The notes under the pieces were generated by a model. That model had not been told where the DNA came from. It was given only the letters and a program-made list of their open reading frames with translations, and searched no databases. From assembly GCF_056746865.1 (NCBI RefSeq), contig NZ_CM163382.1: DNA of 64,000 nucleotides. The stretch is one strand, 5' to 3'. Below are positions 1,805 to 42,132 of this stretch, one piece after another. A program made the position numbers and the translations under genes. Within the stretch, counting starts at the first letter, position 1. Each line of letters begins with the position of its first letter.

Positions 1805-2326
1805 TTAACGCAGTCGCCCTCTCGCCAGGTTCAGCCGCGATTCGCTCATCTGCATCGCATTCTGACTGACGTGACAATGGGTAATCGCGATAGCTAACGC
1901 ATCGGCGGCGTCCGCCTGTGGATTAGCGGGCAGTTTCAGCAAGGTGCGGACCATATGCTGCACCTGGCTTTTTTCAGCACTACCAATACCTACCACCGTT
2001 TGCTTTACCTGACGTGCCGCATATTCAAATACCGGCAATTCCTGATTCACCGCCGCCACAATCGCCACGCCGCGTGCCTGCCCCAGTTTCAGGGCTGAGT
2101 CAGCGTTCTTCGCCATAAAGACTTGTTCAATGGCGAAATAATCAGGCTGGAACTGGGTAATGATTTCCGTCACGCCCGCATAGATGAGCTTCAGACGAGA
2201 CGGTAAATCATCCACTTTGGTGCGTATGCATCCGCTACCCAGGTAGGACAATTGCCTGCCTACCTGGCGGATGACGCCATAGCCGGTCACGCGCGAACCC
2301 GGGTCAATGCCGAGAATAATAGCCAT
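1805..2326 (-). CDS. ruvC: Holliday junction resolvase RuvC (173 aa)
   Basis: ORF 1805..2329 begins [18 protein letters not shown]...; second Met taken as start to match the known 173-aa length. Confidence 0.93.
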
Positions 2327-2360
2327 CACGCGTCTCCGTTTTGCTGTTTAGCAGGCCCCA

Positions 2361-3101
2361 TCAGAGAGTCGCTGCAACCTCATCAGAGATTTCACCGTTA
2401 TGGTAGACTTCCTGCACGTCGTCGCAATCTTCCAGCATATCGATCAGACGCATCAGTTTCGGTGCGGTTTCTGCATCCATATCAGCTTTGGTGGACGGGA
2501 TCATGGAAACTTCCGCGCTGTCTGCTTTCAGACCTGCCGCTTCCAGAGCGTCGCGCACTTTACCCATTTCTTCCCATGCAGTGTAGACATCAATTGCGCC
2601 GTCATCATAGGTCACAACGTCTTCAGCACCTGCTTCCAGCGCTGCTTCCATGATGGTGTCTTCATCGCCTTTCTCGAAGGAGATCACGCCTTTTTTGCTG
2701 AACAGATAAGCTACGGAACCATCAGTACCGAGGTTACCGCCACATTTACTGAATGCATGGCGCACTTCAGCAACGGTACGGTTGCGGTTGTCAGACAGAC
2801 ATTCAATCATGATTGCCGTGCCGCCAGGACCGTAACCTTCGTAGATGATGGTTTCCATGTTTGCATCATCATCACCGCCCACACCACGTGCGATTGCGCG
2901 GTTCAGAGTGTCACGGGTCATGTTGTTAGACAATGCTTTATCAATTGCTGCACGCAGACGCGGGTTAGCGTCCGGATCGCCACCGCCCAGCTTAGCCGCG
3001 GTTACCAGCTCACGAATGATTTTAGTGAAGATTTTACCGCGCTTAGCATCCTGCGCAGCTTTACGATGTCTGGTGTTGGCCCATTTACTATGACCTGCCA
3101 T
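2361..3101 (-). CDS. yebC: YebC/PmpR family transcriptional regulator (246 aa)
   Basis: ORF 2361..3101; [27 protein letters not shown]... signature of the YebC family. Confidence 0.95.
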
Positions 3102-37727: not shown

Positions 37728-39242
37728 TCAGGCAACAGCCTGGCTGACTTTAGGCATCGCAAGGCTCAGTGCCTGACGCTCATCTGCCTGCTCGTGTAAC
37801 AATTCACCGGCGATTTCACCTTCCCGCATCACCACAATCCGGTCGGCAACGCCGAGGACTTCAGGTAAGTCGCTGGAGGCAAACAGCACCGCCACGCCCT
37901 GCGCCGCCAGCGCATAAATTACGTTATATATTTCGTGCTTAGCGCCAACATCAATGCCGCGCGTAGGTTCATCCAGCAAAATGACCTTCATCTCTTCCGA
38001 TAACCAGCGGCCCAGAATGGCTTTTTGCTGATTTCCGCCTGAGAGATTCATGATCAGTTGCTCCGCGCCCGGCGTTTTGATGTTGAGCGAACGAATGTGG
38101 TGATCGGCATTGTTTTCTTCCCAACCGTTGTTGATTACACAACCGCCGAGCACATGTTTACGTCTGGCACTGATGTTGATATTGTCGCGAACGGAGTGCA
38201 CGGGAATAATGCCTTCCGCTTTGCGATCTTCCGGGCAGAGCATCATGCCTGCGGCAATGGCGTGGCTCGGTTTACGAATATCGATCGGCTGTTGGTCGAT
38301 ATAAACCTGACCGGCGGTGATTTGCGTCCCGCCAAACATGCCTTTCATTAATTCGCTACGCCCCGCCCCTACCAGACCAAACAGCCCAACAATTTCACCA
38401 CTGCGAACCGCCAGACTTATTGGCGTACGCACGCCTGGTGCTTTCACAGCATCAAGACGTAGGCGCTCCTCGCCATAACTACGCGGTTGCCAGCCGTAGA
38501 TATCGCCAATGTCGCGCCCGACCATCGCCTGCACCAGCGCGTCGTGGTCAACCTGCTGCATATCGGTAAAGGTTTTGACATAACGTCCATCTTTAAAGAC
38601 AGTAATGGCATCGCTGAGGGCAAATATTTCTTCCATACGGTGAGAAACGTATAAGATTACCCGCCCCTCTTTTCGCAGTTCACGAATAACGCGGAAAAGA
38701 TTGTCGATTTCACGGGCAGAGAGGGAGCTGGTTGGCTCATCAAAGGCGATAATTTTGGCGTTACGCGCCAGCGCTTTGGCGATTTCAACCATCTGCCACT
38801 GACCAATGGAGAGATATTTCAGCGGCGTGTCCGGGTCAATATCCATACCAAGATGTTTAAGTTGTAAACCCGCCTCATAATTCAGCAATGAGCGATTCAC
38901 AATGCCGCCTTTATGCGGCAGCTGGCCGAGATAGATGTTTTCCGCGACGGTCATTTCCGGCACGAGATGCAGTTCCTGGTAAATAATCGCCACGCCCGCG
39001 TTAAGTGCTGCGGTCGTGTCGGAAAAGGACATTTCCTGCCCATTAATCACTACAGAACCCGTGGTTGGCGCATAGTTGCCGCTGAGGATTTTTAAGAGAG
39101 TTGATTTTCCTGCGCCATTTTCACCCATCAACGCATGAACCTGACCGGCATAGCAGTCAAAACTAATATCCGTCAGCGCCTTAACGCCGGGAAACGTTTT
39201 ACCGATGCCGCGAAATGAGAGATACGGGGTAGACTGTTGCAT
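37728..39242 (-). CDS. araG: L-arabinose ABC transporter ATP-binding protein AraG (504 aa)
   Basis: ORF 37728..39287; start set at [15 protein letters not shown]; two Walker A motifs ([16 protein letters not shown]). Confidence 0.93.
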
Positions 39243-39311
39243 AACGTCTCCGTGAATCACTGGTCGTTCACACCCCCTCTGCATCATGCAGAGGGGAATT
39301 TTTCCGGCAAA

Positions 39312-40301
39312 TTACTTACCGCCTAAACCTTTTTTCTCCAGTTCTTCTTTAAAGTTGTCACGCGTGATCAGTACCACGTCGGTAACTTCGGTAAATTTTG
39401 GCGGTTCAACGTCTTTTGCTACCCAGTTGTAAAGCATTTCGCTGGATTTATAGCCATGTACGTCCGGGCTTGGCAGCAGGGAACCGTAGAAGCCGGTTGC
39501 CTGTGCTTTAGACAGTTCGCTCACCGCATCCACACCGTTAATGCCAATGCCGATGATATCGGCCGCTTTAAAGCCCTGACCTTCCGTCGCGCGTACGCCG
39601 CCCAGCACGGTGCTGTCGTTCATACCGACGATCAGCCAATGTTTAACTTCCGGATGTTGAACCAGCATTGAGTTGGCAGCGTCAAATGCCCCCGGGATGT
39701 CGTTAGATTTGGTAGGTACCTGATAAATTTGTTTTTCCGGGAATCCGGCCGCTTTCAGCGCATCCATAGATCCCGTAGTACGGCGGCGGGCGGTATCCAG
39801 TTCGTTGGCGGTAATCGCCATCACCGCGCTTTCTTTGACATCCCAGCCACGTTTCTGCATCTCTTTATACAGTTCCTGGCCCTGACGTTCGCCAATTTTA
39901 GTCGCCGCCATCATCACCAGCGGAACGGTATCCATTGGCTTACCTTTGGCGTTAACAAACTGGTCATCCACGGCAATGACTTTCATATCGTAGCCACGCG
40001 CTTTCGCGACGATGGCAGAGCCGAGTTTGGGGTCCGGAGTACAAATAACGAAACCTTTTGCGCCACTGGCAGCCAGGCTGTCGATCGCGTTCAATGTTTT
40101 TTCGCCATCCGGCACGGCAATCTTAATAACCTCAAACCCTAAATCCTTCCCGGCTTTATCGGCAAACTTCCATTCGGTCTGGAACCACGGCTCTTCCGGT
40201 TGCTTCACCAGAAAACCGAGCTTCAGGTTCTCCGCCATAGCGGATTGTGACATAACGGCTGCCAGACCAATGGCTGCCAGGGCTTTAGTAAATTTGTGCA
40301 T
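39312..40301 (-). CDS. araF: L-arabinose-binding periplasmic protein AraF (329 aa)
   Basis: ORF 39312..40352; start set at MHKFTKALAAIGLAAVMSQSAMA (signal peptide). Confidence 0.95.
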   Translation of the reverse strand: MHKFTKALAAIGLAAVMSQSAMAENLKLGFLVKQPEEPWFQTEWKFADKAGKDLGFEVIKIAVPDGEKTLNAIDSLAASGAKGFVICTPDPKLGSAIVAKARGYDMKVIAVDDQFVNAKGKPMDTVPLVMMAATKIGERQGQELYKEMQKRGWDVKESAVMAITANELDTARRRTTGSMDALKAAGFPEKQIYQVPTKSNDIPGAFDAANSMLVQHPEVKHWLIVGMNDSTVLGGVRATEGQGFKAADIIGIGINGVDAVSELSKAQATGFYGSLLPSPDVHGYKSSEMLYNWVAKDVEPPKFTEVTDVVLITRDNFKEELEKKGLGGK

Positions 40302-41097
40302 GGTTCTCTCCAGCTTTAGTGTCGTTTTGTGTAGGGCAAAAACGAATGACATTCGTTAAATTAATCGGAAAACAAAGCATTACCTTTTAACTAAAAGATA
40401 AGTGACTGTGTTGACATAGTTTTAGCGAGAAATTAATTCTCCATAGGAGAGCAATATCACATCGCAGAATTACAGTGAGAACGTGCATAAATTTAGCGGG
40501 AAAAGACATAAGGGAAAGCCAATTTGTCAGACAAATTGTCGAATGCACAGCAGATTAATCCATAAGATTAGCCTGGAAATCCTTGTTGTCTTTGGTACCC
40601 ATGCGGGATGTCTTCTTTTTAACCAGTCAATAGGCCGCATTACCTGGCGTTGAGTTTTTGAAATGGTGTAATAACCGCAACTCAAAGATGTGGAAAATGC
40701 ACGTCATTCATTTCGTCATTAATTATCACTGTGCTCATTAATTAACAGAACACGTATAATGAGAGCCATCTCGCAAAAATGAAAAAACGTTTTATAAAAT
40801 CATCACTTCATCATGAATTCAAATTCATTGATTAATATCAACAAGATACAAAAAGCACTATCATTAAAATTCATTGCAGTTACATTGATTTCATCAATGA
40901 AATGTAAAAATATATAAACTTGATGATTTAAGCATTTTCTTATACCCGTTCAGACGTTATTCTTATTTCAGATCATCGTCAGAATTGACTCCACGATCAC
41001 ATTTCGGACCGGCAGAAAGGAATTATTCTGCAAACAGTAATTATGGTGTTTTGATTTATCTTGCACCTCTCCACTTCTGGATATAAGGATATTAGGT

Positions 41098-41601
41098 ATG
41101 GCAACCGCTGGAATGCTTCTCAAACTCAACTCTCAAATGAACCGCGAGTTTTACGCATCCAATCTCTACCTTCACCTGAGTAACTGGTGTTCTGAACAGA
41201 GTCTGAACGGCACCGCCACTTTCCTTCGCGCCCAGGCACAGAGTAATGTGACCCAAATGATGCGCATGTTTAACTTTATGAAGAGTGTCGGCGCTACCCC
41301 CATCGTTAAAGCCATTGATGTTCCCGGTGAAAAACTGAACTCTCTGGAAGAACTGTTCCAAAAAACGATGGAAGAATACGAGCAACGTTCTAGTACGTTG
41401 GCACAGTTAGCCGATGAAGCGAAAGAACTGAATGATGATTCAACCGTCAATTTCCTGCGCGATCTGGAAAAAGAACAGCAGCATGATGGTCTGTTGCTGC
41501 AAACCATTCTTGATGAAGTGCGCAGTGCGAAACTTGCGGGTATGTGCCCTGTGCAGACCGACCAACATGTTCTGAATGTCGTGTCACACCAGCTGCATTG
41601 A
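41098..41601 (+). CDS. ftnB: Ferritin-like protein FtnB (167 aa)
   Basis: ORF 41098..41601. Confidence 0.93.
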
Positions 41602-41605
41602 TCAT

Positions 41606-41682
41606 CATCGGCGCTAATGCATTGCGCCGATGAAGGTTTTGAGAAACCGCTGCCTCATCTGTTTGAAGCAGCGGTTTTTTTA
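41606..41682 (+). terminator. Tandem hairpins after ftnB; the second (aaaccgctgc...gcagcggtttttttt) is a likely intrinsic terminator, bidirectional with yecJ
   Basis: catcggcgc-taatgcatt-gcgccgatg, then aaaccgctgc-N14-gcagcggttt followed by T-tract. Confidence 0.6.
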
Positions 41683-41931
41683 ATGGGATTCACCCTGTGG
41701 GGTAAACTTGAGTTCAATAAGCGCGATGGCTTTTTGGATTGCCCGCATGGTGACCGGGTCTGCGGCGGCGGGATGGTTAGTAAAGTCGATATTCTTCAGC
41801 TGACTGGACATTTTTTCACGAACTTCAACGGGCGCGATTACATCGAGAACATCCAGAATTTGTTTGATAACCAACTGGCAAGCAACCACATCAGAAACCA
41901 GTTCCTGATCGGCATTCAGCGGCTGGGACAT
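41680..41931 (-). CDS. yecJ: DUF2766 family protein YecJ (83 aa)
   Basis: ORF 41680..41931. Confidence 0.85.
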
Positions 41932-42017
41932 CGTAAACTCCTGATAGCATTTTGAAAGCCGTTATAGTAGCGGCTTCACATCTTCAGCGATAGTCACATC
42001 CACCGTCATCAGGACAC

Positions 42018-42045
42018 AAAAAAACCTGCCGGAGCAGGTTTTTTG
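42018..42045 (-). terminator. Rho-independent terminator of the azuC (AzuCR/IsrB) transcript
   Basis: Minus strand: acctgc-tccg-gcaggt followed by U7, immediately after the azuC stop. Confidence 0.75.
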
Positions 42046-42132
42046 TTATCGGAACATATTGCCTGGCGGTACGTCTTTGAACGTCTTGCAATAGTTATTG
42101 AACATACTTTTCAGTATTTTGCGCAGTTTCAT
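42046..42132 (-). CDS. azuC: Small protein AzuC (28 aa), MKLRKILKSMFNNYCKTFKDVPPGNMFR; carried on the dual-function sRNA AzuCR (IsrB)
   Basis: Not in ORF track (under 60 aa). Reverse complement of 42046-42132 translates exactly to the 28-aa AzuC sequence; terminator follows directly. Confidence 0.85.
   Translation of the reverse strand: MKLRKILKSMFNNYCKTFKDVPPGNMFR

Follow-up and report, generated by a model that had tools for sequence, protein, structure and literature searches.

The araF–ftnB intergenic region of Escherichia coli: two control regions around a spacer that is probably the scar of a lost DJ-1-family gene

Results

Layout of the araF–ftnB intergenic region

All positions given here refer to the window, that is, the whole 64-kb stretch of DNA that was analysed; addition of 1945827 to a window position yields the coordinate in NC_000913.3 (E. 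coli K-12 MG1655). In the annotation of this record araF occupies 1985139-1986128 on the minus strand, up to window position 40301, and ftnB occupies 1986925-1987428 on the plus strand, from window position 41098 onwards; hence 40302-41097 is exactly the annotated intergenic region between the two genes (Table 1). NC_000913.3 has no annotated feature inside this interval, and neither do the other listed E. coli records, except for an IS1 insertion in one strain. The overall GC content compares with 50.3% for the 64-kb window and drops to local minima of 28%, and the longest ORF contained in the gap has 56 amino acids. With about 80 features annotated in the window, the gap is the largest stretch devoid of annotation, followed by gaps of 482 and 309 bp. 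At least 80% of it was found, in a single copy each, in 5412 of 5426 complete E. coli genomes. The first-pass annotation, which was made from the sequence alone, had described an AT-rich non-coding gap of about 800 bp without any ORF of 60 or more amino acids, unusually long for E. coli, with the araFGH control region at its left and the ftnB promoter at its right end and an unassigned middle. This description is borne out in each respect.

Table 1. Features of the araF–ftnB intergenic region and conservation of its segments (window positions)
Feature	Position	Strand	Remarks
Whole araF–ftnB intergenic region	40302..41097	.	796 bp, 34.8% GC; NC_000913.3 annotation and composition
Predicted araF 5' leader	40302..40412	-	start near 40412 inferred from class-II CRP geometry; -10 TAAAAC at 40419-40424
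CRP-like site TGTGATATTGCTCTCC (sequence on minus strand)	40446..40461	.	2 mismatches to TGTGA-N6-TCACA; pattern scan
Proximal AraC-type direct repeat	40494..40531	+	half-site TAGCGGGAAAAGACATA at 40494-40510; second half-site weak; pattern search
Distal AraC site	40548..40585	+	half-sites CAGCAGATTAATCCATA and TAGCCTGGAAATCCTTG, 21 bp apart; faces away from araF
Unconstrained AT-rich spacer	40587..40901	.	33% GC; position of the DJ-1-family gene elsewhere; inside H-NS ChIP-chip region
TATAAT hexamer	40755..40760	+	best -35 TGCTCA (3/6); no extended -10
18-codon ATG frame MKKRFIKSSLHHEFKFID	40779..40835	+	ATG at 40779 to TAA at 40835; not regarded as a gene
Perfect FNR consensus TTGATTAATATCAA	40828..40841	.	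exact TTGAT-N4-ATCAA; centre 134.5 bp upstream of ftnB start
CpxR-box-like tandem GTAAAAATATATAAA	40904..40918	+	9/10 to GTAAA-N5-GTAAA; centre at about -58
Likely sigma70 core promoter of ftnB	40935..40963	+	TTTTCT-17 bp-TATTCT; placed relative to published start; scan
ftnB 5' UTR, CsrA-binding leader	40969..41097	+	129 nt; GGA motifs at 41006, 41019, 41079 and 41087
Segment of the gap	40302..40501		invariant fraction 0.81 (7 Escherichia species)
Segment of the gap	40502..40551		invariant fraction 0.38 (7 Escherichia species)
Segment of the gap	40552..40586		invariant fraction 0.86 (7 Escherichia species)
Segment of the gap	40587..40701		invariant fraction 0.15 (7 Escherichia species)
Segment of the gap	40702..40780		invariant fraction 0.35 (7 Escherichia species)
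Segment of the gap	40781..40901		invariant fraction 0.37 (7 Escherichia species)
Segment of the gap	40902..40968		invariant fraction 0.76 (7 Escherichia species)
Segment of the gap	40969..41097		invariant fraction 0.91 (7 Escherichia species)

Conservation was assessed with 38 loci fetched from GTDB representative genomes with FtnB as the query. Six other Escherichia species share the gap of about 800 bp, and all seven sequences align. Four-fold degenerate sites in araF and ftnB of these seven genomes, 213 in total, served as the neutral reference; their pairwise identity is 0.69-0.72 and their invariant fraction 0.347. Polymorphism among six diverse E. coli strains is distributed very unevenly: of 36 polymorphic columns, about 30 are located in 40587-40901 (32 in 40502-40901), two in 40302-40501 and none in 40952-41097. 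Taken together, the conservation profile across species (Table 1) and the polymorphism within E. coli delimit two strongly constrained blocks around some 315 bp of drifting DNA.

The araFGH control region

The left 285 bp (40302-40586) are the araFGH control region, composed of the leader, a CRP-like site and two AraC sites. In the literature araFGH is described as dependent on AraC and CRP, in line with the established view that its transcription depends on arabinose and cAMP. The block is 70-77% identical in every genus possessing araF, and the homology to all of these other genera ends abruptly at about 40586, where the distal AraC site ends. Within Escherichia, pairwise identity of the predicted leader reaches 0.87-0.94, as compared with the 70-77% found across genera, and no 25-bp bins of the gap are more conserved than those holding the CRP-like site (0.95-0.99 identity). 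If this site acts as a class II site, with a presumed position of -41.5, transcription of araF would start at about 40412 and the leader would comprise some 111 nt; this start site is a prediction based on promoter geometry.

In the proximal AraC repeat, the AGC...ACATA portion is invariant in the seven Escherichia species and the second half-site varies. The distal half-sites deviate from TAGC-N7-TCCATA by one mismatch (40548-40564) and two mismatches (40569-40585), respectively, and form a direct repeat; a 15-mer within them (ATCCATAAGATTAGC, 40558-40572) recurs unchanged at the I1-I2 junction of araBAD. Both repeats run on the plus strand and thus away from araF. A rightward AraC-dependent promoter resembling pBAD was considered next to this inverted AraC site and rejected because the -35/-10 geometry of pBAD is absent to the right of the repeats.

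The ftnB promoter and leader

The right-hand 195 bp or so (40902-41097) are the ftnB promoter with its CpxR-like box and a 129-nt leader that is bound by CsrA. A single start of ftnB (b1902) is given at 1986796 in the SMRT-Cappable-seq supplement, which corresponds to window position 40969 and therefore defines a leader of 129 nt. Likewise, a sigma70 ChIP-seq peak labelled araF/ftnB was reported at 1984820 of U00096.2 (Myers et al. 2013, PMC3688515); after conversion to NC_000913.3 coordinates by addition of 1976 it lands on the very base at which ftnB transcription starts. For anaerobic growth this is the only sigma70 peak listed between 1982483 and 1986022 (Myers et al. 2013, PMC3688515). 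Alignment across genera revealed conservation of TAAGGATTTTCTTAT and of the ftnB -10 region, and the CpxR-box-like tandem GTAAAAATATATAAA is near-invariant in all genera aligned. In the literature, ftnB is cited as a Cpx-activated member of the Cpx regulon that has an additional sigma-E promoter. The four GGA motifs counted in the leader agree with published CsrA footprints. According to that report, CsrA protects three of the four motifs, one of them located over the Shine-Dalgarno sequence, and represses ftnB translation.

A spacer that evolves at the neutral rate

Pairwise identity in the spacer between the two blocks is 0.33-0.74 in the seven Escherichia species, as compared with 0.69-0.72 at the four-fold degenerate sites, and 0.15-0.37 of its columns are invariant against 0.347 at neutral sites. 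The spacer is thus conserved at or below the neutral rate and appears to be functionally inert. Apparently conserved islands in its centre (TTAATTATCAC, ATAATG, ATATCAA) are within chance expectation by a scan statistic: the best 12-bp islands have nine of 12 positions invariant (P = 0.13-0.45). An origin of the centre from a mobile element or repeat was dismissed, as it is present in a single copy per genome and lacks homologues in phages and genuine plasmids. All matches to records designated as plasmids come from E. coli entries of very large size (0.39-4.9 Mb), and we read these as chromosomal.

The right-hand margin of the spacer deserves a separate comment. BLAST similarity to Citrobacter and Salmonella extends leftward to about 40780-40800, and short motifs recur across genera (ATATCAA, CATCAT and a palindrome at 40784-40793). 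Some distal cis-elements of ftnB between 40780 and 40900 are therefore conceivable. Manual pairing of E. coli ATAATGAGAGC...CGCAAAA with a motif of other genera, AAAATGATCTGGCGCAAAA, was not reproduced by MAFFT and was abandoned.

Short reading frame and TATAAT hexamer

For the middle of the gap the first-pass annotation had left three options: an sRNA locus, a small-protein locus or spacer DNA bound by H-NS. It had pointed to a perfect TATAAT at 40755-40760, which is present as claimed, and to a short ATG-initiated frame from 40779 (MKKRFIKSSLHHEFKFID) without a convincing Shine-Dalgarno sequence. The latter statement was correct in that the 20 nt preceding the ATG (atgagagccatctcgcaaaa) contain no such motif.

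That the frame encodes a small protein could be argued from its ATG start and from the fact that it is intact in five of the six E. coli strains sampled. However, nine ATG frames of at least 18 amino acids are observed in the gap where 11.1 +/- 3.6 are expected, and the frame is thus nothing beyond chance level. Conservation across Escherichia, which the first-pass annotation had suggested looking at, turned out to be lacking: in the nearest sister species, which is about 90% identical overall, ATA takes the place of the ATG and there is a frameshift, and none of the six other species retains start, frame and stop. Among the six E. coli strains we counted one synonymous change (ATT to ATC) as opposed to at least six nonsynonymous ones, and in strain 143 codon 8 is converted from TCA to a premature TAA stop. 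The frame is also unannotated in NC_000913.3, a record which does carry the small proteins azuC, yecU, yecV and yobI. A protein-coding function of 40779-40835 therefore has next to no probability in our judgement, and the small-protein reading appears to be effectively refuted by these comparative data already. On neither strand does the centre contain another ORF of at least 12 amino acids that is conserved in the seven Escherichia species. Conserved frames occur only inside the near-invariant ftnB leader and the araF control block, and their preservation is uninformative because nothing varies there.

The TATAAT hexamer might represent a real promoter that gives rise to an sRNA or to a long alternative ftnB leader starting at about 40767. 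AT-rich DNA bound by H-NS is known to harbour cryptic promoters, and a perfect -10 hexamer in such DNA is in keeping with this idea, as is the invariance of an ATAATG core in the seven Escherichia species, the second base of the hexamer being altered in one of them. TAAAAT- or TATAAT-like hexamers are also found at roughly comparable places in other genera. Yet, at the base composition of the gap a mean of 1.1 TATAAT hexamers is expected by chance (P = 0.64 for at least one), the associated -35 element is poor, an extended -10 is absent, and no promoter anywhere in the gap passed a stricter promoter scan. Nor is there a terminator between 40761 and ftnB; the sole terminator-like site on the plus strand (40687-40705) is located upstream of the hexamer. 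A permissive scan of the gap with Rfam 15 returned matches at chance level alone (all E >= 0.36, far below the gathering scores), and putative transcripts from either strand are predicted to fold like shuffled sequences (z = -0.47 and -0.05). In the published start-site and sigma70 data, which are insensitive to weak or short RNAs, no capped 5' end and no sigma70 peak lies near 40755, the only signal being that at 40969. Finally, the DNA downstream of the hexamer evolves neutrally (invariant fraction 0.35-0.37 versus 0.347). We thus regard an active promoter at this position that gives rise to an sRNA or a long ftnB leader as very improbable.

H-NS coverage and the FNR box

The third option, spacer DNA bound by H-NS, is the one that agrees with the available data. 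An H-NS ChIP-chip region at 1983947-1985830 of U00096.2, corresponding to 40096-41979 in the window, spans the whole gap (Myers et al. 2013, PMC3688515 Table S3), the middle of which evolves neutrally as outlined above. An O2-dependent change of araF and araG, reported to occur only in hns stpA cells, is at most an indirect hint that local transcription may be de-repressed in hns mutants. Layout and H-NS-bound spacer are the parts of the first-pass interpretation that we retain, and its sRNA and small-protein options are the parts for which we see no support.

The centre also contains TTGATTAATATCAA, the only exact FNR consensus in the 64-kb window. The motif is catalogued at 1984679 of U00096.2 with a PatSer score of 15.49 (PMC3688515 Table S6). 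This position converts exactly to 40828, which validates the coordinate conversion used here. In that table it is classed as predicted, with H-NS enrichment overlapping it and no FNR ChIP-seq peak. Four of six E. coli strains have TCGAT or TCGGT as the left half of the box, and the other Escherichia species all deviate in this half. With no peak in vivo, a polymorphic and unconserved sequence, and a centre at -134.5 relative to the transcription start, the box lacks the further hallmarks of an FNR-activated promoter beyond the consensus itself.

The centre of the gap could nevertheless be a working distal regulatory region of ftnB, in which the FNR box at 40828 or Fur-like AT-rich boxes at 40714-40730 would act over a long distance by displacing H-NS in a manner similar to that at ftnA. 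The exact match to the FNR consensus, unique in 64 kb, and the coverage of the spacer by H-NS would be compatible with such a function, and so would a paper on Salmonella, which cites Partridge et al. 2007 for binding of FNR in vitro unusually far upstream of E. coli ftnB and describes both a dependence of Salmonella ftnB on Fnr and Fur and its binding by H-NS. In the same paper, again with reference to Partridge et al. 2007, FNR alone is said not to activate E. coli ftnB. The missing ChIP-seq peak as well as the variability of the box within and outside E. coli argue against a role in vivo. The situation is similar for Fur. Weak Fur-like matches are present at 40714-40733, and GATAAT-type boxes exist at a comparable place in Citrobacter; the best match, however, agrees in 12 of 19 positions, which is typical for AT-rich DNA, and a published ftnB'-'lacZ fusion containing about 500 nt of upstream DNA was not affected by Fur. 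We have therefore rejected the presence of a Fur box in the gap. Furthermore, the region evolves at the neutral rate without a significant conserved island, and one strain has lost everything to the left of 40895 through an IS1-associated deletion while its ftnB is still annotated as intact. On balance, we consider it unlikely that the centre serves as a distal regulatory region of ftnB.

A DJ-1-family gene occupies the position of the spacer in other genera

In 24 loci, which belong to Citrobacter, Enterobacter, Lelliottia, Leclercia, Silvania, Huaxiibacter and others, an intact gene for a protein of 185 amino acids is located between araF and ftnB, and the distance between the latter two genes amounts to about 1100-1430 bp. 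Together with two Salmonella loci, this gene is intact beside ftnB in 26 loci. It is located on the minus strand, divergently to ftnB, and about 30 bp (33 bp in C. koseri) separate its stop codon from the araF control block. The encoded protein matches TIGR01383 (DJ-1 family glyoxalase III) with 131.8 bits at a cutoff of 131.25. In Salmonella, the DJ-1-family gene and ftnB have been kept and remnants of the araF control region remain, but araFGH has decayed.

Various stages of decay were encountered outside Escherichia. The gene is frameshifted in the Leclercia strain at locus L037. In two Citrobacter strains it is reduced to three fragments (L015) or to the C-terminal 45 amino acids (L039), and in another strain it is nearly erased, with short profile matches only (L008). 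In none of the seven Escherichia species was the gene found at this locus. Relocation to another site was ruled out by the finding that 0 of 5426 complete E. coli genomes contain a homologue at the DNA level.

A DNA profile was built from the 24 full intergenic regions carrying the intact gene and used with nhmmer --max. K-12 is matched over profile positions 2-311 and 1101-1400; in place of 789 profile positions, which comprise the gene and about 225 bp upstream of it, it has 190 bp (40610-40799). This profile search detected no similarity to the lost gene within 40610-40799, and a tblastn search of the spacer for a gene remnant, done with four DJ-1 proteins at word size 2 and E values up to 100, gave a best E value of 0.27. 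In view of this lack of residual homology we infer the gene-loss scar from synteny, and the term pseudogene does not apply to the spacer. The upstream region of the DJ-1-family gene is itself poorly conserved among genera (major-allele frequency 0.43-0.67), and the 190 bp at 40610-40799 could be unrelated filler instead of a diverged remnant. As the gene is present in outgroups, Salmonella and Citrobacter, parsimony favours a single loss at the base of Escherichia, and the distribution of the gene points to loss rather than gain.

Discussion

Between araF and ftnB there is indeed an unusually long gap, yet its content is ordinary and largely known already: the araFGH control region, the ftnB promoter with its CsrA-bound leader, the coverage by H-NS and the silent FNR motif have all been published. 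We consider it likely that the gap is non-coding and consists of two control regions plus about 315 bp of unpreserved, H-NS-coated spacer left behind by the loss of a DJ-1-family gene. According to this model, an ancestor of Escherichia would have lost a divergently transcribed gene for a DJ-1-family glyoxalase III located between the araF control region and ftnB. The 315 bp at 40587-40901 would be the scar of this event and would have no sequence-specific function under selection. The leftover AT-rich DNA is coated by H-NS in vivo, and this coating would keep motifs that arose by chance silent or unoccupied, among them the FNR box at 40828 and the TATAAT at 40755. The gap would owe its length to two conserved control regions combined with the neutral remnant of a lineage-specific gene loss, a cause which the first-pass annotation overlooked.

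The new biology contained in these findings is limited; the outcome is a negative one that also offers an explanation. In E. coli, an intergenic region of unusual length need not conceal a gene, and a perfect -10 hexamer as well as a perfect FNR box can arise by chance in AT-rich DNA. No description of the loss of the DJ-1-family gene beside ftnB in Escherichia, or of its repeated decay elsewhere, was found in the literature searched. Both the loss and the repeated decay in other lineages would merit a small comparative-genomics note.

It is tempting to speculate that the spacer is a nucleation platform for H-NS which sets the level of silencing of ftnB, and perhaps also of araFGH, and whose motifs become active once H-NS is displaced. 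If this applied, the FNR-type and Fur-like motifs or a cryptic promoter at the TATAAT would become active, for instance, under anaerobiosis combined with iron or envelope stress, and Escherichia would have built an anti-silencing switch of the ftnA type from the orphaned promoter region of the lost gene. We consider this scenario rather improbable.

Individual elements of the gap have counterparts in well-characterized systems. The distal AraC site is organized like I1-I2 of araBAD: in both cases two 17-bp half-sites are arranged as a direct repeat 21 bp apart, and they share the 15-mer ATCCATAAGATTAGC. By contrast, the site in the gap reads away from araF and is located about 155 bp upstream of the predicted araF start, whereas I1-I2 abuts the -35 region of its promoter; the pBAD-like geometry found at araBAD is absent to its right. 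The FNR motif at 40828 does not differ from the unoccupied FNR sites under nucleoid proteins described by Myers et al. 2013 (PMC3688515), as it is one of their cases.

The upstream region of ftnA is the closest regulatory parallel in that a ferritin-family gene follows a long AT-rich stretch bound by H-NS and furnished with distal regulator-like motifs. Fe-Fur is said to reverse H-NS silencing from the upstream region of ftnA, a finding reportedly made by Nandal and colleagues in 2010. Unlike ftnA, ftnB has no convincing Fur box in its gap, Fur is inactive on the E. coli ftnB'-'lacZ fusion, and the distal part of the ftnB upstream region is unconserved.

With regard to its presumed origin, the spacer differs from decayed pseudogene remnants in that it has kept no residual similarity to the lost gene. 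In its genomic setting it resembles other gene-loss scars of enterobacteria: the flanking synteny is kept, and the gene is present in many genera and is decaying in individual strains, as exemplified by the loci L015, L039, L008 and L037.

Gene decay around the araF–ftnB region

The DJ-1-family gene, which encodes a 185-aa glyoxalase III between araF and ftnB in other Enterobacteriaceae and is absent from the Escherichia examined, has decayed independently at loci L037, L015, L039 and L008 (see table). Together these loci give graded decay states leading toward the Escherichia condition.

In two Salmonella enterica loci, L010 and L013 (subsp. diarizonae and arizonae), it is araFGH that is lost or decayed, leaving an ORF that corresponds to an AraH-like fragment. 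Stretches homologous to parts of the araF control region of E. coli, namely window 40302-40365 and 40396-40552, persist there and adjoin an intact DJ-1-family gene and ftnB.

Features of the araF–ftnB region in E. coli K-12 (window positions) and in loci from other genomes (L numbers, positions per locus)
Feature	Position	Strand	Remarks
DJ-1-family glyoxalase III gene, frameshifted	L037 1899-2454		Leclercia adecarboxylata NCTC13032
DJ-1-family glyoxalase III gene, fragmented	L015 2189-2454; L039 2321-2455		Citrobacter sp. Cu233, sp. R56
DJ-1-family glyoxalase III gene, almost erased	L008 ~2290-2740		Citrobacter MAG
araFGH/araF-control remnants, Salmonella	L010 1635-1845, 1047-1472; also L013		
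GC-rich inverted repeat of ftnB leader	L017 ~2925-2965; also L019, L020, L025, L026, L010, L013		alignment columns 505-545
Palindromic motif upstream of ftnB	L010 ~2653-2680; L014 ~2690-2715; E. coli window 40784-40793		
115-aa ORF	window 40012-40359	+	antisense to araF 5' end, extends 58 bp into gap
Perfect TTGACA	window 40411-40416	+	within conserved araF promoter block, opposite inferred araF -10

Possible turnover within the gap

Among Escherichia species, pairwise identity at window 40587-40701 is only 0.33-0.50, as compared with 0.69-0.72 at four-fold sites. One version of this segment is common to K-12 and its sister, another is found in a second clade, and a third in E. albertii. Identity below that of four-fold sites, together with the three versions, suggests that the segment has changed through turnover of indels or by replacement, and not by point substitutions only.

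Upstream of ftnB, a palindromic motif reads TGAAACAATGTTTCA in Salmonella versus TGTGATATGAAACAnCATTTCA in Citrobacter. MAFFT pairs it with an E. coli segment containing the 10-bp palindrome AAAACGTTTT, which falls within the short 18-codon ATG frame at window 40779-40835.

The ftnB leader and IS1 events

In Salmonella and the C. freundii group, the ftnB leader contains an additional GC-rich inverted repeat of ~35-40 bp (e.g. gtgcggcggcagcccgttgcac), which in the alignment is missing from Escherichia, C. koseri and C. amalonaticus. An IHF ChIP-chip region (window 41060-42115; 1984911-1985966 in U00096.2) spans the end of the leader, ftnB and yecJ.

In E. coli strain 2017.09.02CC an IS1 (L002 ~2261-3028) sits in the leader after the second and before the third GGA motif, flanked by a 9-bp target duplication (window 41053-41061), and cuts off the native promoter from ftnB. 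E. coli strain Ecol_542 (L046 1536-2700) has lost most of otsA through an IS1-associated deletion, along with otsB, araHGF and the part of the gap left of window ~40895; only the conserved ~200 bp remain upstream of ftnB.

The araF end of the gap

Most of the other listed loci contain antisense ORFs comparable to the 115-aa ORF, with lengths of 109-126 aa. The E. coli ORF is likely a shadow ORF that accompanies a highly conserved gene. The TTGACA hexamer reads TTGGCA in five of the six other Escherichia species; it may belong to a divergent promoter or be coincidental.

Expression of araF and araG (together window 37728-40301) and of yecJ changes in an O2-dependent manner only in an hns stpA double mutant, in which the three genes are ~3-fold higher aerobically (Myers et al. 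2013, Table S11, PMC3688515).
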